Source of the DNA: Chthonomonas calidirosea
GTDB taxonomy: Bacteria; Armatimonadota; Fimbriimonadia; Fimbriimonadales; Fimbriimonadaceae
NCBI GenBank assembly: GCA_945859975.1
Contig: CAMAPH010000016.1
Coordinates: forward strand, 1 to 58,086
Direction of reading: 5' to 3'
DNA length: 58,086 nt
Shown: positions 28,854-36,335 of the stretch, piece by piece
Layout of the letters: every line of letters starts with the position of its first letter
Position numbering within the stretch: position 1 is the first letter of the stretch
Notes under the pieces: generated by a model
Told to the model about the DNA's origin: nothing
Databases searched by the model: none
What the model saw: only the letters and a program-made list of their open reading frames with translations
Position numbers and translations under genes: made by a program

Positions 28854-29375
28854 TTAGCCGTGTTGCGAAGTTTCCATCGCCGGAATATGATCCCGTGCTT
28901 CGAGCGCCGCCGCGACAATGGGGACAACTGGCTCGGGAACGAGGGTGGAATAGTCTCCGCCGAGGACCGCCACTTCGCGGACCATCGAACTGCTGAGGTA
29001 GCTGTAATCCCAGCGAGTCATAAGAAAGACGCTGTCGACGTCGCTCGCGAGTCGCCGATTGATCATCGCCATCTGAAATTCGTACTCAAAATCGGCCGTC
29101 GCCCGAAGGCCCCGAACAATCGACTTTGCGCCGACGCTCCTGGCGTATTCAACCAACAGCCCGCTGAAGCTTGCGACTTCCACGTTCGGAAAGTGGGCAG
29201 TGGAAAGCCGAAGGGCTTCGATGCGTTGATCGGTGGTCAGCAACGGCTGCTTAGCCGAATTGACGCCCACCGCGATGATCAGTCGATCAAACAGGTGAGT
29301 TGCCCGCTCGATGACATCAAGATGCCCGAGAGTCGGCGGGTCGAAACTCCCGGGATAGATGGCAAGCATTTTCAT
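28854..29375 (-). CDS. coaD: Phosphopantetheine adenylyltransferase
   Basis: AIYPGSFDPPTLGHLDVIERA, IVRGLRATADFEYE, LSSSMVREVA. Confidence 0.97.
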   Translation of the reverse strand: MKMLAIYPGSFDPPTLGHLDVIERATHLFDRLIIAVGVNSAKQPLLTTDQRIEALRLSTAHFPNVEVASFSGLLVEYARSVGAKSIVRGLRATADFEYEFQMAMINRRLASDVDSVFLMTRWDYSYLSSSMVREVAVLGGDYSTLVPEPVVPIVAAALEARDHIPAMETSQHG

Positions 29376-30955
29376 CACTTTTCGGCAATTTCTACCGTGG
29401 TATGCACCATTGTGCCAAAAAGATTCGTGCGCAAGCCCTTGACCTGAGGTTTGACCAAAATCATGTCCCGACCGAAGTAAGCCGGAATGCGGGCCGCGTC
29501 TTCGAGAAGGAGATCTTCGGCTTCTTGGTACATGGCCCGCCGCTTTTCTACATCTGGCTCGACATCTGCCCGTGCGCAGAGATCATCGACTTTGGCATTT
29601 GAATACCCGTCGCGGTTTTCGACCGCTGTGCTGGTCAGCAGGAAGCTAATGAAGTTTTCGGGATCGAGGTAGTCGGCGAACCAACTCAGACCAACGAACT
29701 GGAGCTTCTTGGCGTTTCTTGCTTCAAGGAAGGTTCGCCATTCCATTGCCCGAGTCGCGACTTCAACTCCGAGATTCTTCTTCAGATCGGTCACCGTCGA
29801 GACGGCGAGAAGCTGGCTATCCGGCCGACCTTCTCGGTACGTAATCGTGAGCGGCGGCAGGCCCTTTCCGCCGGGATATCCCGCCTGGGCGAGCAGATCG
29901 CGCGCCGTGGCTGGATCGAACGGAATGCCCTTGATGTCCGGTCGATGGCCATCAATGCCCGCCGGGATGAAGCCTTTAGCCTCGGGGAGGTGGATGATGT
30001 CCCCGGCAATCTTTGCGCGGTTAATTGCCATCGCAAAGGCCTTCCTAACCCGAACGTCCTTGAACGGAGCGTAGAGCCCCTGGTTCATTCCGATGTAGTA
30101 AATCGCCGGTCGGTCTACTGCCTTTAGTTCGGCTTTGAGCTTTGCATCGGACTCTACGGCAGGAAGGTCTTGCCGCTCAAGGGTGAGAATGTCCAGCTCA
30201 TTGTTTCGATACTTCAGTAGGCGCGTGGAAGCGTCCTTGATTACGGGGCGAATCAGCTTTCCGATCTTCGGCGGTCCCAGATAGTAGTCCTCAAACGGAG
30301 CCATTTCGAGCTGCTGATCCTTTTCGTACTTCGCCAGCTTGAATGGTCCCGTGCCGATCACTTCCTCGATGTCGTTGATCTCCTCGTCTTTAGCGGTTTC
30401 CTTTGCGACCACGAAGGCGCATGGGTAAGTCAACTTTCCGAGGAAGTACGGTCGAGGCTTGTCGATGGTGATCTTGATCGTTTTGCTGTCCACGACCACG
30501 AGACCGGAAATCTCTTTCGCTTTGCCTTCAAAGCGCTCAGCAAAGCCAACGATGTCGGCCAAGTAGCTGCCGGCCGTTGGTGAACCAAACTTGGGATCGC
30601 TGTTGCGCTCCAGGCTGAACTTCACGTCCTCGGCGGTGACGTCTCGTCCGTTGTGAAACTTCGCGTTCGCACGGAGCTTCATGACGTAGGTCTTGCCGCC
30701 GTCCTCCATTGTCCAGCTTTCGGCTAGCTGGGGGATGATCTTGTTCTCCTCGGAGTAACTCACCAGACCTTCGTAGAGGTTCTGAATGAGGTCGCCGGTG
30801 TCGACATCCTGCACTTTGCCGGGGTCCAGCGTTGTGGGCGAGGTGTGCATCGCGTACCGGAACGTGGACGTCGAGGACGTATTCCGTTTGCTGAACCCAC
30901 CCTGGCTGCAGCCAGCGAGCAATACGGGAACGAGGAGCCAAGAACTTCGTTTCAA
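29375..30955 (-). CDS. Peptide ABC transporter substrate-binding lipoprotein (SBP_bac_5)
   Basis: Lipobox LAGC; TLDP, LYEGLV, PQLAESW, KFHNG..VTAEDVKFS, GTGPFKL, PFKDVRVRKAFAMAINR. Confidence 0.92.
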   Translation of the reverse strand: MKRSSWLLVPVLLAGCSQGGFSKRNTSSTSTFRYAMHTSPTTLDPGKVQDVDTGDLIQNLYEGLVSYSEENKIIPQLAESWTMEDGGKTYVMKLRANAKFHNGRDVTAEDVKFSLERNSDPKFGSPTAGSYLADIVGFAERFEGKAKEISGLVVVDSKTIKITIDKPRPYFLGKLTYPCAFVVAKETAKDEEINDIEEVIGTGPFKLAKYEKDQQLEMAPFEDYYLGPPKIGKLIRPVIKDASTRLLKYRNNELDILTLERQDLPAVESDAKLKAELKAVDRPAIYYIGMNQGLYAPFKDVRVRKAFAMAINRAKIAGDIIHLPEAKGFIPAGIDGHRPDIKGIPFDPATARDLLAQAGYPGGKGLPPLTITYREGRPDSQLLAVSTVTDLKKNLGVEVATRAMEWRTFLEARNAKKLQFVGLSWFADYLDPENFISFLLTSTAVENRDGYSNAKVDDLCARADVEPDVEKRRAMYQEAEDLLLEDAARIPAYFGRDMILVKPQVKGLRTNLFGTMVHTTVEIAEK

Positions 30956-31100: not shown

Positions 31101-34100
31101 TTAGATCACGCCATCGGCACGAAGTTGCTTGTAATGGCACTCCTTGAACTTGTGACCACTTCCGCAAGGACAAACGTCATTTCGACCGACACGCTTCGCA
31201 TCGATGTCCTTGGGGAACGGCAATGTGCCGGGCTCGGCCTTCGTCATCGTTGCCACGCCACCCGACTCGGTGCCTTCCGGTAGCGCCGGAGCACCGCCGA
31301 GGAGATCGAGTTCGAGTGGAGTTGGATTCTCCACCTGAATGTTCATGCGGAAGATGAGCTTTGCCGCATCGGTTCGGATTCCCTTATCGGTGCGCTGGAA
31401 GAGATCGTAGGTCTCTCGCTTGTAAGCGACCAGTGGGTCAACCTGACCGTAACCGCGGAGGCTGATACCGTCTCGAACGTACTCGACCATCTGTAGGTGG
31501 TCCATCCAGCGATCGTTGACCGCCTTGAGGATGACAAACCGCTCGAGTTCGTTCATTGCGTCGCTCAGGCGAGCAACCTTTTCGTCGTAAGCCTTCATCG
31601 CGACGCCGTAGAGAAACTCGACCAGGTCTGGGCCAGGCTGGTACTGCTCCAACTCGCTTAGGGTGACGTGGTCAACCAGCGGGAAGAGCTCGTTCGCGTC
31701 TTCAAACAGCGCCGAGTGGTCATAGAACTGCTCGCCGGAGGTTTCGTCCACCATCCAAGCATCGTCCACGAGTTCGGCCATTGCTTCGCGCAAGTAGGAC
31801 TGAAGCTCCGTTCGGACATCCTTGCCCAACAGCACTTCTCGTCGCATTCCATAGACGTGTTCGCGCTGGGCGTTCAACACGTCGTCGTATTCGAGAACGT
31901 GCTTTCGGGCCTCGAAGAAGTGGTTTTCGATGCGCTGCTGGGTCTTCTCGATCATGCGCGAGAGGAACCGCGTGTCCACCATTTCCATTGGTGGCCACAT
32001 CTTCAGCGCCGGGTTCTCCATCATGTTCGCGTTAAAGATCTTCCAGAGGTGATCTTCGAGCGCAACAAAGAATCGCGACTCGCCTGGGTCGCCCTGTCGT
32101 CCGGCTCGACCTCGGAGCTGGTTGTCAATTCGGCGAGACTCGTGTCGCTCCGTTCCGAGGATAAACAGACCTCCGAGGGCGCGGACTTCTTCGGCGGCAG
32201 CGCGGCGCTCTTGGTCGTCGAGCGGAAGCGGCGGAGCGGCTCGCTCCATGCCTCCACGTCGGAAGCTAACGTAGGTGTCTCCGTACTCGTCGAGTCCGTC
32301 TTGAGCAACTTCGGTTTGAGCACGAGCTTGTCGGACAAGCTCGTCCTCGATGCGTCCGCCAAGGAGAATATCAACGCCTCGACCGGCCATGTTCGTGGCA
32401 ATCGTGACGGCGCCCTTTCGTCCGGCTTCCGCGATGATGACGGCTTCGCCTTCGTGGTTCTTTGCGTTCAGAACGTTGTGAGGGATTCCGTGCTTGAGCG
32501 CTTCTCGGAGATATTCCTCGGCTTCGGTCGGAAGCTTGAACTCGTTGAGGCACCACGAGATGTGGTCGCCCTTGAAAAGGTCAGCTTCCAGATCGATCTT
32601 GGCAAGCAAAGTGTTGAGGCTTTGCTTATCGATGTCGGGAAGATTCGTTTCGTAAAGTCGCTTCGCTTCTGCGCCGTTTTCGCCCTTGAGGTCCTTCTTG
32701 ATCTCAACTCGCTCTCGGAGTCGATAAATCAATACCAGTCGCTGAAGCATGTCGCCGGTCAATCGCGCGGAGACTCGCTCCGACATTTCGATGGATCGCG
32801 TTCCAACCAGAACGGGCTGTTGCTTGGAATAAAGGCGAAGGAGTTCCCAGCCGATGCCTCGGAATTTTGCCTCAATGGTCTTGTAGATCAGGTCGGCTTG
32901 GTCTTCTCGCTTGCTCGGACGGTGGGTGGGCACCGAGACCACGTCGAGGCCATAAATCTTTCGGAATTCGTCCTCTTCGGTCTTGGCCGTACCGGTCATT
33001 CCGCCCAGCTTTTCGTAAAGTCGAAACAGGTTCTGGAAGGTGATGGTCGCCACGGTTTGGCTTTCTCGCTGAACGGTGACGCCTTCCTTCGCTTCGAGGG
33101 CCTGGTGCAGGCCATCGCTAAATCGGCGACCGAACATCATTCGACCCGTGTTCTCGTCGACGATCACGACCTCGCCGGAGCGGACCACGTAGTCGATGTC
33201 CTTATCGAAAAGCGCGTGCGCTTTAACGCTGGCGTTGACGTGGTGGAACAATCGCGGATCAGCGGCGATGTTCTCGATCTCCATCATCTGCTCGATCATG
33301 TCCATGCCTTCTTCGGTAAGGCTGGCGCTGTGATTCTTCTTGTCCGCCGTGAAGTGGACCTCGGGTTGAAGCTGCTTGACGTATTCGTTGACCTTTGCGT
33401 AAACGCTAACGTCTTCGTTCGACGGACCGCTGATGATGTGCGGGGTTCGTGCTTCGTCGATGAGGATCGAGTCGACTTCGTCAACGATCGCGAAGTTCAG
33501 TTCGCGCATGACAAGTTCGCCTTCGCTGAACGCCATGTTGTCGCGAAGATAGTCGAAGCCAAATTCGTGGTTCGTTCCGTAAACGATGTCGCAGCCGTAG
33601 GCATCGCGTCGCGAACATGGCACGAGGTTCATGTATCGCGGGTCTTCCATGGCGTTCGCGCCGGGAACGTAAAGGTAGGAACCGCCTAGCTCGTCGCTGT
33701 CTTGGCTTTGGCCCTGGATGATTCCGACGCTCAAGCCCATGAAGTGGTAGATCGGCCCCATCCAGACGGCATCTCGTCGAGCAAGGTAGTCGTTGACCGT
33801 AACAAGATGCGCGCCCTTTCCGGGAAGTGCGTTAAGGACCATCGGCGCGACGGCAACGAGGGTCTTTCCTTCACCGGTCTTCATTTCGGCGATTCGGCCC
33901 TGGTGGAGAACCGTTCCTCCAATCAGCTGAACGTCGAATTGGCGCATGCCGAGTGCTCGGCGACTGACCTCTCGGACAACCGCGAATACTTCGGGCAGCA
34001 TCTTGTCGAGGCTTTCGCCGCCAGCGACACGCGACTTGAACTCGTGCGAGATTGCCTTGAGTTCGTCGTCCGTGAGGTTGGTGTAGTTGGCTTCGAGGCC

Positions 34101-34178
34101 GTTGATTTTGGTGATGATGGGCGAGACGGCGTCTACGTCGCGTCGGCTAGTGTCGAAAAGTTTGCGTAAAAAGTTCAT
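31101..34178 (-). CDS. secA: Protein translocase ATPase SecA
   Basis: MKTGEGKT, VTVNDYLARRD, DEVDSILIDEARTP, GMTGTAKTE, IATNMAGRG.DI, RHESRRIDNQLRGRAGRQGDPG, C-terminal SEC-C GRND.CPCGSG.KFK.CH. Confidence 0.99.
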   Translation of the reverse strand: MNFLRKLFDTSRRDVDAVSPIITKINGLEANYTNLTDDELKAISHEFKSRVAGGESLDKMLPEVFAVVREVSRRALGMRQFDVQLIGGTVLHQGRIAEMKTGEGKTLVAVAPMVLNALPGKGAHLVTVNDYLARRDAVWMGPIYHFMGLSVGIIQGQSQDSDELGGSYLYVPGANAMEDPRYMNLVPCSRRDAYGCDIVYGTNHEFGFDYLRDNMAFSEGELVMRELNFAIVDEVDSILIDEARTPHIISGPSNEDVSVYAKVNEYVKQLQPEVHFTADKKNHSASLTEEGMDMIEQMMEIENIAADPRLFHHVNASVKAHALFDKDIDYVVRSGEVVIVDENTGRMMFGRRFSDGLHQALEAKEGVTVQRESQTVATITFQNLFRLYEKLGGMTGTAKTEEDEFRKIYGLDVVSVPTHRPSKREDQADLIYKTIEAKFRGIGWELLRLYSKQQPVLVGTRSIEMSERVSARLTGDMLQRLVLIYRLRERVEIKKDLKGENGAEAKRLYETNLPDIDKQSLNTLLAKIDLEADLFKGDHISWCLNEFKLPTEAEEYLREALKHGIPHNVLNAKNHEGEAVIIAEAGRKGAVTIATNMAGRGVDILLGGRIEDELVRQARAQTEVAQDGLDEYGDTYVSFRRGGMERAAPPLPLDDQERRAAAEEVRALGGLFILGTERHESRRIDNQLRGRAGRQGDPGESRFFVALEDHLWKIFNANMMENPALKMWPPMEMVDTRFLSRMIEKTQQRIENHFFEARKHVLEYDDVLNAQREHVYGMRREVLLGKDVRTELQSYLREAMAELVDDAWMVDETSGEQFYDHSALFEDANELFPLVDHVTLSELEQYQPGPDLVEFLYGVAMKAYDEKVARLSDAMNELERFVILKAVNDRWMDHLQMVEYVRDGISLRGYGQVDPLVAYKRETYDLFQRTDKGIRTDAAKLIFRMNIQVENPTPLELDLLGGAPALPEGTESGGVATMTKAEPGTLPFPKDIDAKRVGRNDVCPCGSGHKFKECHYKQLRADGVI

Positions 34179-34258
34179 GTGGATAGGCCGGAGGTTTTCC
34201 GTGGGTTGGACCCCGCGCTAGGCGCAAGGAAAGGGAAGCCGAGGGAGCAGGGTTTTGC

Positions 34259-34552
34259 TCAGGCCACGGGTCCGGCACGGTTTCGGCGGCACTTTCTGCG
34301 GCCCGCTACTTCGCTTGGGCATTCATCGGAATCGATCCTAGTGCTCGGTTGCTTGGGTGCTTGGGCGGCGATGGGTTCCGGTTTTGCCGGGGTTTCGGGA
34401 ATCTCCCGAGAAATTTCGTTTACCCACGCCAGCGTCAAATTCCGGCTAATGCGGCTGATAGCGAGTTGCCGAGCCGCGTCCGAAACGCTAGGGTCGTGTG
34501 CCCATGTGCCCTGCCAAAGGATCAGGAATAGGGCGGGAAGAAACGAAAACAT
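34259..34552 (-). CDS. Putative SecM-like translation-arrest leader peptide (signal-like N-terminus, C-terminal RAGP)
   Basis: 97 aa MFSFLPALFLILWQGTWA...RRNRAGPVA*; 80 nt upstream of secA on the same strand; CATAAT 10 nt before the ATG. Confidence 0.75.
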   Translation of the reverse strand: MFSFLPALFLILWQGTWAHDPSVSDAARQLAISRISRNLTLAWVNEISREIPETPAKPEPIAAQAPKQPSTRIDSDECPSEVAGRRKCRRNRAGPVA

Positions 34553-34613
34553 GCGACTGCCTATTATGACGCTTGCCGAGGGAAGGAGATGACTGGGGCC
34601 TAAGGCACTTGGA

Positions 34614-34916
34614 TTACGCGTCGTTCTTTGGACCGTCCGCTCGATGGGCGGATGCAGCAATTAAGTTTGCCCCTCGGTTCGCGATCCAGCTTCCGACTGC
34701 ACCCATAACCAGGAGCAGTACGATTCGAATGAGAATTCCCGCCAAGTTCGTTTGGGCGGTGTTGTAATTGATGTCCTTTCCGGCTTCGACACCAAGCGCT
34801 TGTGCCGGGGGAGTTCCGAACATTTGCAATGCGAGCTGGAACGTGTAACCGAGGATTGCGACGCCACCTAAAAAGGTGAGAAGTCCGAGCACCATGCTAA
34901 ACGGATCGCGTCTCAT
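34614..34916 (-). CDS. Hypothetical membrane protein (2 TM)
   Basis: Two hydrophobic helices; CATAAT 6 nt before the ATG. Confidence 0.7.
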   Translation of the reverse strand: MRRDPFSMVLGLLTFLGGVAILGYTFQLALQMFGTPPAQALGVEAGKDINYNTAQTNLAGILIRIVLLLVMGAVGSWIANRGANLIAASAHRADGPKNDA

Positions 34917-34952: not shown

Positions 34953-36227
34953 CTAGGCTTCGGTTATTGTCGTTTCGGCTTGCGCGGGATCCTTGAGCGT
35001 CCAGGCCGCCATCGCGGGGAACAGAATGGCGGCAGCACCCAAAAGGTACGGGTATTCCGGCCGCGCCGCGAAAAGTGGGTTGCCAATAATCGGGCCAACG
35101 AGCCGGGCTAGCGCGCCGAGGGACTGCGTGATCCCAAAGATTCCGCCTTGGATTTGAGGAGGCGCATTTCGGGAGACAAGGCTGGAAAGTGAAGGCTGAG
35201 AAAGTCCGCTCCCAACGCCCTGTAGGATCACGACGCCAATCACGGGAAGCCACAGGGGTGCATAAGGTACGAGCGCCAAAGCGGGAACGAGCATGATCAT
35301 CCCGACCCGCAGCAGGTTGATCTCCCCAAACTTTGCTTGGAGCTTCGGCAAGAATCCGCCTTGAATCACGGCGCCGGTGATACCTACGATCCCCAGAATG
35401 TAACTGCCGTACTCCTTCGCATGCGTGACGTTTAGGTGAAAGACCGACCTCGGATCGGCAAGTAGCCGAAAGAACGTGGTCTGTAACATCGCGAAGCCGA
35501 AGTTAAATGCGAAGAGCATGCAGAGCAAGAGCACCAAGCCCTTGGTGGAGAACGCAATTCGCATCTCTTGCATCCAAGAAGCACGCTTGATCTCGGTCCC
35601 GGGTTTAAGGCTTTCCGGTAATCCGAAAATGATGTAGACCGCGTTGATCAGCGCAAGGCCAGCTCCGACGTAGCCGAGCAGCATCGGGGAATCGTTTCCA
35701 ACTCGGATGAGCAATCCGCCGATGACGGGTCCCAGGATGAATCCCATGCCCAGGGCCGCTCCAACCATCCCGAGACCTTTGGCCCGATCCTGAGGAGCGG
35801 TAACGTCGGCCACATAAGCGAAGGCGACACCGAGGTTCGCGGCCGCGATGCCGGCGATCAGGCGACTGCCTAAGGAGAGCCAAAATTCCGTGGCATTGGC
35901 ATAAACGACATAGCTCAGAACCGACAAGATCGTCGTCGCGAGGAGAATCGGTCGACGGCCGATTCGGTCGCTCAGTCTGCCAAGGATTGGGGAAGCAAAC
36001 AGTTGGCAAAGGCTGAAGCCGGCGATCAACAGGCCGACCATGTAGCCGACTTCGCGATTCGAGCCCGCTTGGTCGAGGGGAATTTTCAGCATTTTTGCAG
36101 CAAGCGACTCTCCTCGCAGCTGCAGGTCCGGAATGAATAGTCCGAAGCTGAACAAGTCTAGGAAAACGGTCAGCAGGATCCCTATGAGTAGTGAACGAGA
36201 AGGTGGGCTGGCCGTTGACTCAGACAT
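34953..36227 (-). CDS. MFS transporter (TetA/DHA1-like)
   Basis: Motif A GRLSDRIGRRP, AYVADVT...RAKGLG..GAA.G.GFILGP..GG; about 12 TM. Confidence 0.9.
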   Translation of the reverse strand: MSESTASPPSRSLLIGILLTVFLDLFSFGLFIPDLQLRGESLAAKMLKIPLDQAGSNREVGYMVGLLIAGFSLCQLFASPILGRLSDRIGRRPILLATTILSVLSYVVYANATEFWLSLGSRLIAGIAAANLGVAFAYVADVTAPQDRAKGLGMVGAALGMGFILGPVIGGLLIRVGNDSPMLLGYVGAGLALINAVYIIFGLPESLKPGTEIKRASWMQEMRIAFSTKGLVLLLCMLFAFNFGFAMLQTTFFRLLADPRSVFHLNVTHAKEYGSYILGIVGITGAVIQGGFLPKLQAKFGEINLLRVGMIMLVPALALVPYAPLWLPVIGVVILQGVGSGLSQPSLSSLVSRNAPPQIQGGIFGITQSLGALARLVGPIIGNPLFAARPEYPYLLGAAAILFPAMAAWTLKDPAQAETTITEA

Positions 36228-36335
36228 GGGGTGTACTGGAGATTGTACTGGGTCGTCTGATAGAAGCACCGATCTGCGGATTCAAGAATTCGTATTCTCA
36301 AGTCTGCGCCGGTGTTGTATAGTGGTACCGACCAG

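Follow-up and report, generated by a model that had tools for sequence, protein, structure and literature searches.

The secA locus and its upstream open reading frame

The DNA analyzed here (the window) is a stretch of 58,086 nucleotides (nt), positions 1 to 58,086 of contig CAMAPH010000016.1 (assembly GCA_945859975.1), deposited as Chthonomonas calidirosea and placed by GTDB in the family Fimbriimonadaceae. The window harbors secA on the minus strand (31101..34178; ATG 34178-34176), encoding a protein of 1025 amino acids (aa). Directly upstream on the same strand, and separated from secA by a spacer of 80 nt, the list of open reading frames (ORFs) with their translations contained an upstream ORF (uORF) of 97 aa plus stop (34552-34259; ATG 34552, TGA 34261-34259). 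The uORF protein starts with the hydrophobic stretch MFSFLPALFLILWQGTWA, for which a hydropathy scan gave a mean of 2.45 over 12 aa, taken as evidence of a localisation signal, and its C-terminal end reads ...RRNRAGPVA. The R-A-G-P codons CGU GCC GGA CCC (34268..34279, minus strand) end two residues before the stop codon. All elements described below are read on the minus strand, and leader positions are counted from the secA AUG. The last codons of this uORF were found to be complementary to the secA leader, the complementary leader bases are conserved in close relatives, and the complementarity between uORF end and leader is locus-specific across the family.

The arrest-peptide family uA_RQH_Fimbriimonadales has been described with five uORFs upstream of secA, all of which carry RDGP and a signal predicted by SignalP and have the Gly codon in the P site (PMC10987492, Fujiwara 2024). 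A member of 131 aa was reported to stall Bacillus subtilis ribosomes in vitro, to stall less well in the Escherichia coli in vitro system and to stall in E. coli in vivo (PMC10987492); the tail of the construct tested there is identical to that of locus L147 of the present survey. The motif class is defined in the same paper as (R/Q/H)-(A/G/D)-(P/G/S)-(P/G) near the C-terminus, a definition that the RAGP of the window uORF, two residues before the stop, fits. The window uORF is a member of uA_RQH_Fimbriimonadales; hence, the arrest peptide as such is not new, and the window adds an RAGP variant. It resembles the published members in being a same-strand uORF upstream of secA with a signal-like N-terminus, a length of ∼90-130 aa and R-x-G-P 0-11 residues before the stop, and differs from the five listed members in carrying RAGP instead of RDGP, as do 25 of 140 family loci. 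Translation arrest at RAGP would be expected by analogy, PMC10987492 reporting arrest for one RDGP member of the family, and with the P-site position measured there for this motif class, the stalled ribosome would have GGA (34273-34271) as its P-site codon and CCC as its A-site codon.

The host belongs to the order Fimbriimonadales, as it is of the same genus as genome G024, whose secA (797902) and uORF agree in coordinates and sequence with the Fimbriimonas ginsengisoli row of PMC10987492. A search with the uORF protein returned the near-identical uORF of genome G014 as the sole significant match, and the G024 uORF at E 0.14 in the correct position. Relatedness to the listed members is judged from synteny, from the architecture and from the tail ...R-x-R-(D/A)-G-P that they have in common. 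A metagenome scan with the uORF yielded two near-identical loci and one weak match, none being of intermediate divergence. The uORF product matched 0 Pfam families at E<=0.01, with no match to a curated SecM model among them, and a search of 33900-34800 on both strands with the Rfam covariance models gave 0 matches at E<=1.

Within the genus, all 24 loci, the window included, carry a uORF ending in R(D/A)GP directly upstream of secA, and such a uORF was absent before secA from all six loci of other families in the order. In the survey of the family, a secA match (conserved N-terminus) was obtained in 168 of 175 genomes, and 145 loci were examined. An R(D/A)GP uORF was present upstream of secA in 140 of these (115 RDGP and 25 RAGP), with the motif 0-11 residues before the stop, a hydrophobic N-terminus in 136/140 by hydropathy scan, and a uORF-secA spacer of 45-180 nt (median 79). 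The remaining five comprised one doubtful QNPP, three contig ends (L175, L237 and L261) and locus L150. In the latter (G048:C1, secA ∼1838728, minus strand), and in no other family locus for which enough upstream sequence exists (here 1494 nt), an R(D/A)GP uORF is missing; it is a possible natural loss of the arrest peptide, and its secA leader would be a useful contrast. Two other routes to homologous loci were discarded: a search of genome contigs with the SecA N-terminus gave universal SecA matches, its sole yield being one named Armatimonadota record, and a DNA search with a degenerate QRSRDGP codon pattern gave chance matches across all phyla among the matches listed.

Predicted pairing between the uORF end and the secA leader

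An earlier note on this DNA, made from its letters, had proposed two hexamer complementarities between the uORF end and the secA leader, and both were found to be present. GCCGGA, from the Ala-Gly codons (34276-34271), is fully Watson-Crick complementary to UCCGGC (34192-34187, corresponding to -14..-9 from the secA AUG), and CCGUGG, from the Pro-Val-Ala codons (34269-34264), is complementary to CCACGG (34204-34199, corresponding to -26..-21). At the window locus, both the motif (GCCGGA) and the tail (CCGUGG) thus contribute strands. The description of their arrangement was equally accurate: the two helices nest, 8 nt separate the outer one from the secA AUG (34178-34176), and both enclose the inner hairpin CCUUGCGC-CUA-GCGCGGGG (34229-34211), the core of which showed a pair probability of 0.94-0.98. 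A further hairpin, GAGCA-N6-UGCUC (34260-34245), starts within the stop codon UGA and was present in both the minimum free energy (MFE) structure and the RNAalifold consensus, and the A/C-rich CUAUCCAC (34186-34179; probability of being unpaired, P(unpaired), 0.54-1.00) stands directly before the AUG with no Shine-Dalgarno (SD) sequence. Relative to the first P-site base, the 5′ strands of the stem lie at -3..+2 and +4..+9, which places them by geometry inside the footprint of the stalled ribosome, the footprint size used being that of general knowledge.

The words GCCG and CCGUG each occur twice within 27 nt (34264-34290; GUGCCG...CCGUGCCGGACCCGUGG), which gives two pairing registers. In the alternative register, the 5′ strands GCCG (34290-87) and CCGUG (34280-76) are paired in the MFE structure with the same leader segments. 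Also seen in the MFE structure and in the consensus was a possible outermost helix between AGAAAGU (34297-34291, uORF codons) and ACUUUUU (34174-34168, secA codons 2-4); its AGAAAGU strand is located ∼15 nt upstream of the RAGP motif, and two of its seven pairs are broken in the related genome G063.

When a context of 116 nt was folded, the structure proposed in the earlier note was the MFE structure (-35.7 kcal/mol), and its pairs had probabilities of 0.48-0.97. The cores of the two leader strands, CACGG and CGGC, were paired in one register or the other in all contexts folded, with P(unpaired) of 0.00-0.31 for CCACGG in three contexts and 0.00-0.13 for the core CGGC. Several results of the folding weigh against a switch of the kind that the earlier note proposed. 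In the 141-nt and 191-nt contexts, the proposed structure was located 1.3 and 1.0 kcal/mol above the MFE, with pair probabilities of 0.14-0.27 and 0.21-0.42, respectively, and the MFE structures adopted the shifted register (CCGUG 34280-76 with CACGG 34203-199, and GCCG 34290-87 with CGGC); the pair probability of GCCGGA was 0.25-0.27 and 0.39-0.42 in these two contexts and 0.90-0.97 in that of 116 nt. The stability of the region is ordinary, with an MFE of -41.5 kcal/mol for the 141-nt stretch (z -1.27; 22/200 shuffles as stable) and a z of +0.82 for a stretch of 241 nt. The secA AUG and -8..+3 were predicted to be open in all contexts. Arrest was modelled as a ribosome over R-9..R+21 (R standing for the Arg codon's first base), all upstream sequence being blocked as well. 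The energy required to open -20..+10 was 3.77 kcal/mol in the free RNA, 4.69 with the upstream sequence blocked and 4.88 with the footprint also blocked, i.e., no relief was obtained. For -30..+3, the corresponding values were 8.58, 7.30 and 5.95 kcal/mol, a relief of 2.6. Folding with and without the footprint, which the earlier note had put forward as a check, gave the long-range stem in every context, in one of two registers, but the AUG was open and the relief amounted to 0 to 2.6 kcal/mol. By these models, the stem at the window locus by itself is real, yet thermodynamically modest and register-ambiguous.

It could be argued that the GC-rich complementarity at the window locus is fortuitous and that the leader hexamers are invariant owing to another constraint, for instance as the binding site of a protein or of the 30S subunit. 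The ordinary fold z-scores agree with this explanation, as does part of the chance test, in which the 80-nt intergenic region was subjected to 2000 dinucleotide-preserving shuffles and the 30-nt footprint was compared with the final 30 nt of that region and the 10 nt of secA that follow. Of the 2000 shuffles, 375 produced one or more perfect helices of >=6 base pairs (bp), and 416 matched or beat the duplex energy of -20.6; the existence of alternative upstream partners, indicated by the model since blocking the footprint leaves -20..+10 unopened, points in the same direction. However, two nested 6-bp helices, as observed at the locus, were obtained in only 7/2000 shuffles. When the shuffling was confined to -30..-1, the duplex energy of -20.6 was reached in 2/100.

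Conservation was evaluated in a close clade of five sequences, in which the window was joined by G014, G063 and two contigs from metagenomes. For this clade, the RNAalifold consensus equaled the structure of the earlier note together with the stop-codon hairpin and the outermost helix to secA codons 2-4. Both leader strands, CCACGG and UCCGGC, were invariant in 5/5 sequences, as was GCCGGA. None of the 12 leader partner bases varied, as against 35 of the 80 spacer positions (hypergeometric 5e-4, a value somewhat inflated by the misalignment of a replaced hairpin and by the contiguity of the bases), and variation was found at four of the six bases between the two leader strands and at three of the eight bases before the AUG. 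The inner hairpin of G063 is replaced in place by a different perfect hairpin, UCGAACGC-CUU-GCGUUCGA, and the stop-codon hairpin GAGCA/UGCUC varied at 2 of 16 positions. The MFE structure of G063 is in the upstream (shifted) register and is unusually stable (z -3.19; 1/200 shuffles as good).

Two observations from the close clade speak against the pairing: no compensatory change was found in the outer-helix pairs, as these sequences vary too little, and a synonymous change of GUG to GUU in G063 breaks one pair of the CCGUGG helix. In the comparison of homologues, for which the earlier note had called, the consensus fold, the invariant partners and the family complementarity described below favor the pairing. 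Although the lack of such a change in the close clade would suit a fortuitous match, this explanation is considered quite unlikely, since none of the 12 partner bases varies as compared to 4/6 of those between them, the same topology is the consensus fold, and the complementarity of uORF ends to their own leaders survives the controls at the level of the family.

Locus-specific complementarity across the family

The spacers of the family are too diverged for a single model, so that a family-wide count of covarying columns could not be made, and swap and shuffle tests were used instead. A covariance model built on the L048 subclade, searched against 100 of the 145 loci, gave 11 matches, of which eight were training sequences and three were weak (E 0.13-0.7); the model did not generalise to the family, which is a point against the switch. 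In the MAFFT alignment of the same subclade, some helices were placed in shifted columns as judged by eye, and the 3 compensatory pairs among 22 consensus pairs were not relied on.

The tests were carried out on 115 family representatives that were >=30% edit distance apart. Partition-function folds gave 6.69 expected pairs of the footprint with its own leader (-30..+10) vs. 3.69 with dinucleotide-shuffled leaders (n=115). The own leader was above the shuffle median in 92/115 loci and above all 10 shuffles in 34/115, where ∼10 were expected. The partners of the leader peaked at R+12..R+23, corresponding to the tail and the stop codon, and the paired positions of the leader peaked at -22..-8, the AUG being ∼0.75 open.

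The swap test compared the score of each uORF end on the leader of its own locus with its scores on the leaders of all other loci, with 5000 permutations. The footprint, a window set beforehand, gave z -6.3 against -30..+10, and 0/5000 permutations reached the observed value. The stretch from the Pro codon to stop+3, a window picked post hoc from the partner profile, gave z -11.8 against -30..+10 and z -12.1 against -30..-1 (0/5000 in both). Among 40 mutually dissimilar loci, the same stretch gave z -7.3 against -30..-1 (0/5000), and 14/40 ranked in the best tenth. The control windows showed z -2.6 for the upstream window against -30..+10 (22/5000) and z -0.3 for the Pro codon to stop+3 against secA +1..+30 (1839/5000). 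A shuffle test, in which each 5′ window was compared with 100 shuffles of its own -30..-1 and 5.8/115 loci were expected at p<=0.05, was in agreement: the stretch from the Pro codon to stop+3 reached this level in 35/115 loci (mean z -1.06), the footprint in 12/115 (mean z -0.40) and the upstream control in 7/115 (mean z -0.22).

The four motif codons alone did not share in this signal, with z -1.7 in the swap test against -30..+10 (238/5000) and 6/115 loci at p<=0.05 in the shuffle test (mean z -0.14), and both values weigh against the reading of the RAGP codons as the conserved pairing strand. The earlier note had taken these codons as the pairing element; as a conserved strand they had to be rejected, since their duplex energy showed no family signal and no excess over chance, the signal being found in the Pro codon, the tail and the stop. 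Its further claim that the pairing supports arrest independently of the protein motif was also not upheld, because one strand consists of the motif's own codons and is thus constrained by coding. Judged from the sequences, what is conserved is complementarity to the secA leader of those codons that a stalled ribosome would hold in its A site and entry channel.

Blocking of the footprint gave a modelled relief of 2.1 kcal/mol on average, with at least 2 kcal/mol in 54/115 loci and at least 4 in 35/115; a control footprint placed 36 nt upstream gave 0.2 kcal/mol. The relief was -1 kcal/mol or worse in 20/115 loci, a point against the release of the leader by arrest. The tail of the uORF after the motif comprised 0-4 codons in 103/115 representatives. 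In many loci, the spacer begins with a local hairpin that includes the uORF stop codon (GAGCA/UGCUC in the window and GCUUAG/CUAAGC in the L048 subclade consensus), and the tail matched the first 30 bases of its own spacer better than it did the same stretch from other loci (z -4.5).

These data also bear on plain translational coupling, in which any ribosome reaching the uORF end, stalled or not, would unwind the stem and the RAGP stall would add little, the chief role of the stem being to make translation of secA dependent on that of the uORF. In E. coli, basal secA expression also depends on secM translation. The strongest family complementarity is located in the Pro codon, tail and stop, a region that a terminating ribosome covers as well, and the short tails and the motif codons devoid of signal are equally in accord with such coupling. 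However, the spacing of 45-180 nt is too long for classical coupling by overlap or reinitiation. Moreover, R(D/A)GP is kept in 140/145 loci and a member of the family was reported to arrest translation (PMC10987492), which argues that dwell time at that site matters. Plain coupling is compatible with an arrest-driven opening of the stem and does not exclude it; as the account that makes the stall largely dispensable, it appears unlikely.

The secA leader as the target of a possible SecM-like switch

The statement in the earlier note that secA lacks a strong SD was confirmed, as no GGAG, GAGG or AGGA 4-mer was present in the 25 nt before the AUG, but this is not special to secA. Among 1497 long ORFs of the genome, an SD-like 4-mer (GGAG/GAGG/AGGA) at -18..-4 of the first ATG was found in 257 (17%) as compared to a background of 7%, a count that includes uncurated start sites. 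With a shallow peak of such 4-mers at -14..-9, the genome appears from its sequence to be a weak SD user. Among the secA leaders of the family, 2/141 carried an SD-like 4-mer, and the composition of -12..-1 was A 39%, C 35% and G 11%.

The spacer is rich in C at the window locus (C at 35 and G at 16 of the 80 positions) and in the family (C 37%, G 21%), and a Rho gene is present in the genome (PF07497, 94.9 bits). The C-rich, G-poor spacer may thus be viewed as a Rho loading site or nuclease target to which the stem and hairpins modulate access, the position of the ribosome deciding on transcription into secA. Structured RNA is unfavorable for Rho loading. The spacer is largely structured by prediction, as seen in the pair probability of the inner hairpin, and no terminator-like site was found on the minus strand from the uORF to secA. 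Contigs from RNA libraries (four metatranscriptome libraries from four studies, of a related strain with ∼3-7% other letters) bridge uORF, spacer and secA in 3/4 runs, which speaks for the switch described below and against control within the spacer; such contigs cannot, however, prove one transcript, as carry-over of DNA is possible. Since the C excess arises in part because the leader must pair with G-rich codons, and since control of RNA synthesis or stability would leave the locus-specific complementarity to -22..-8 unexplained, this explanation is regarded as very unlikely.

The RNA-library contigs end at 34524-34544, 34568-34655 is uncovered in 4/4 runs, and cover resumes at ∼34678-34702 in three. 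This is compatible with, and a weak hint of, one transcript starting just upstream of the uORF start (34552). A scan for a sigma-70-like promoter consensus found none on the minus strand of the spacer nor near 34524-34655. Further upstream of the uORF on the minus strand lie an ORF of 100 aa with hydrophobic stretches and 0 Pfam matches (34614-34916) and an MFS transporter gene (34953-36269; PF07690, E 2e-43), and a gene for a family-5 solute-binding protein (29375-30955) is located downstream of secA.

A SecM-like switch, in which arrest of the ribosome on the uORF opens the stem and frees the secA leader, is considered the probable explanation, albeit with moderate confidence. The uORF would encode a secretion-monitoring arrest peptide, with its signal-like N-terminus and C-terminal RAGP, co-transcribed with secA. 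In free mRNA, the last uORF codons would pair with the secA leader at ∼-26..-9, closing a structured intergenic region of 80 nt that contains the stop-codon hairpin and the inner hairpin, and the stem would tie up the 30S landing stretch on an A/C-rich leader devoid of SD. During a stall with the Gly codon GGA in the P site and the Pro codon in the A site, the ribosome would hold both 5′ strands in its mRNA channel, so that the leader strands would stay free until the stall ends and initiation on secA would rise. Once the Sec pathway pulls the nascent chain, the stall would end, termination would follow two codons on, and the stem would re-form. In this model, lowering of secA translation by the stem and its relief by arrest would be the regulatory steps. 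The earlier proposal that a stalled ribosome frees secA initiation thus gains from the topology seen family-wide and from the 5′ strands lying within the footprint, but the stem misses the AUG and -8..+3, and the modelled relief is weak.

The E. coli SecM-secA pair resembles the present locus in its R-A-G-P arrest, with the P site occupied by Gly and the A site by Pro, in the secreted monitoring substrate, and in a stem by which the end of the upstream ORF ties up the region of secA initiation. The opening of this stem is attributed to the stalled ribosome (PMC10987492, introduction). It differs in that the window uORF shows no detectable sequence relation to SecM, in the absence of a Pfam match, and in the arrest site, which in the window is only two codons before the stop. 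Further, the SD is hidden in E. coli, whereas here no SD is present and the stem covers -26..-9 with the AUG open. In the Alteromonas uDF_RQH_Enterobacterales-secDF2 pair, the stall exposes the ribosome-binding site, as shown by stem mutations (PMC10987492), and in MifM-yidC2 and VemP-secDF2, the stall disrupts a stem-loop and thereby exposes the downstream ribosome-binding site (PMC10987492, introduction). These three systems have other target genes and motifs and a masked SD; in the present family, the exposure of the leader is a prediction. A stem between the upstream-ORF end and the initiation region, as in SecM-type switches, is seen here in the predicted folds, the consensus and the family complementarity, and its 5′ strand falls by geometry within the stalled footprint; sequestration of an SD or of the start codon was not observed. 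Hence, the RNA coupling as modelled could be grouped with the SecM-type switches, differing by the lack of an SD target. In a full-text literature search, no description of pairing between uORF end and secA leader in the Fimbriimonadales family was found, and in the passages of PMC10987492 covered by the analysis, stem-loops are described for SecM and the Alteromonas secDF2 uORF only.

The general picture of SecM is left unchanged by this analysis, which singles out the individual bases to be mutated. Many phyla are known to have arrest peptides encoded upstream of sec and yidC genes, and the link from stall to gene has been shown for few, all of them with a masked SD. It is possible, and proposed here only tentatively, that Fimbriimonadaceae run an SD-independent SecM switch, in which arrest frees a G-poor, A/C-rich landing stretch (-22..-8) rather than unmasking an SD, in a genome most of whose genes appear to be devoid of an SD, and in which the regulatory strand is formed by the few codons that directly follow the P site; the restriction of the tail to 0-4 codons would then be accounted for. 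The two registers that the repeated CCGUG and GCCG words provide in the window could, in such a switch, allow the stem to re-form stepwise behind or ahead of the ribosome. With ∼140 natural variants, in which the uORF end and the secA leader change together, the family would provide a comparative set for the coupling of arrest to initiation on a leader without an SD.

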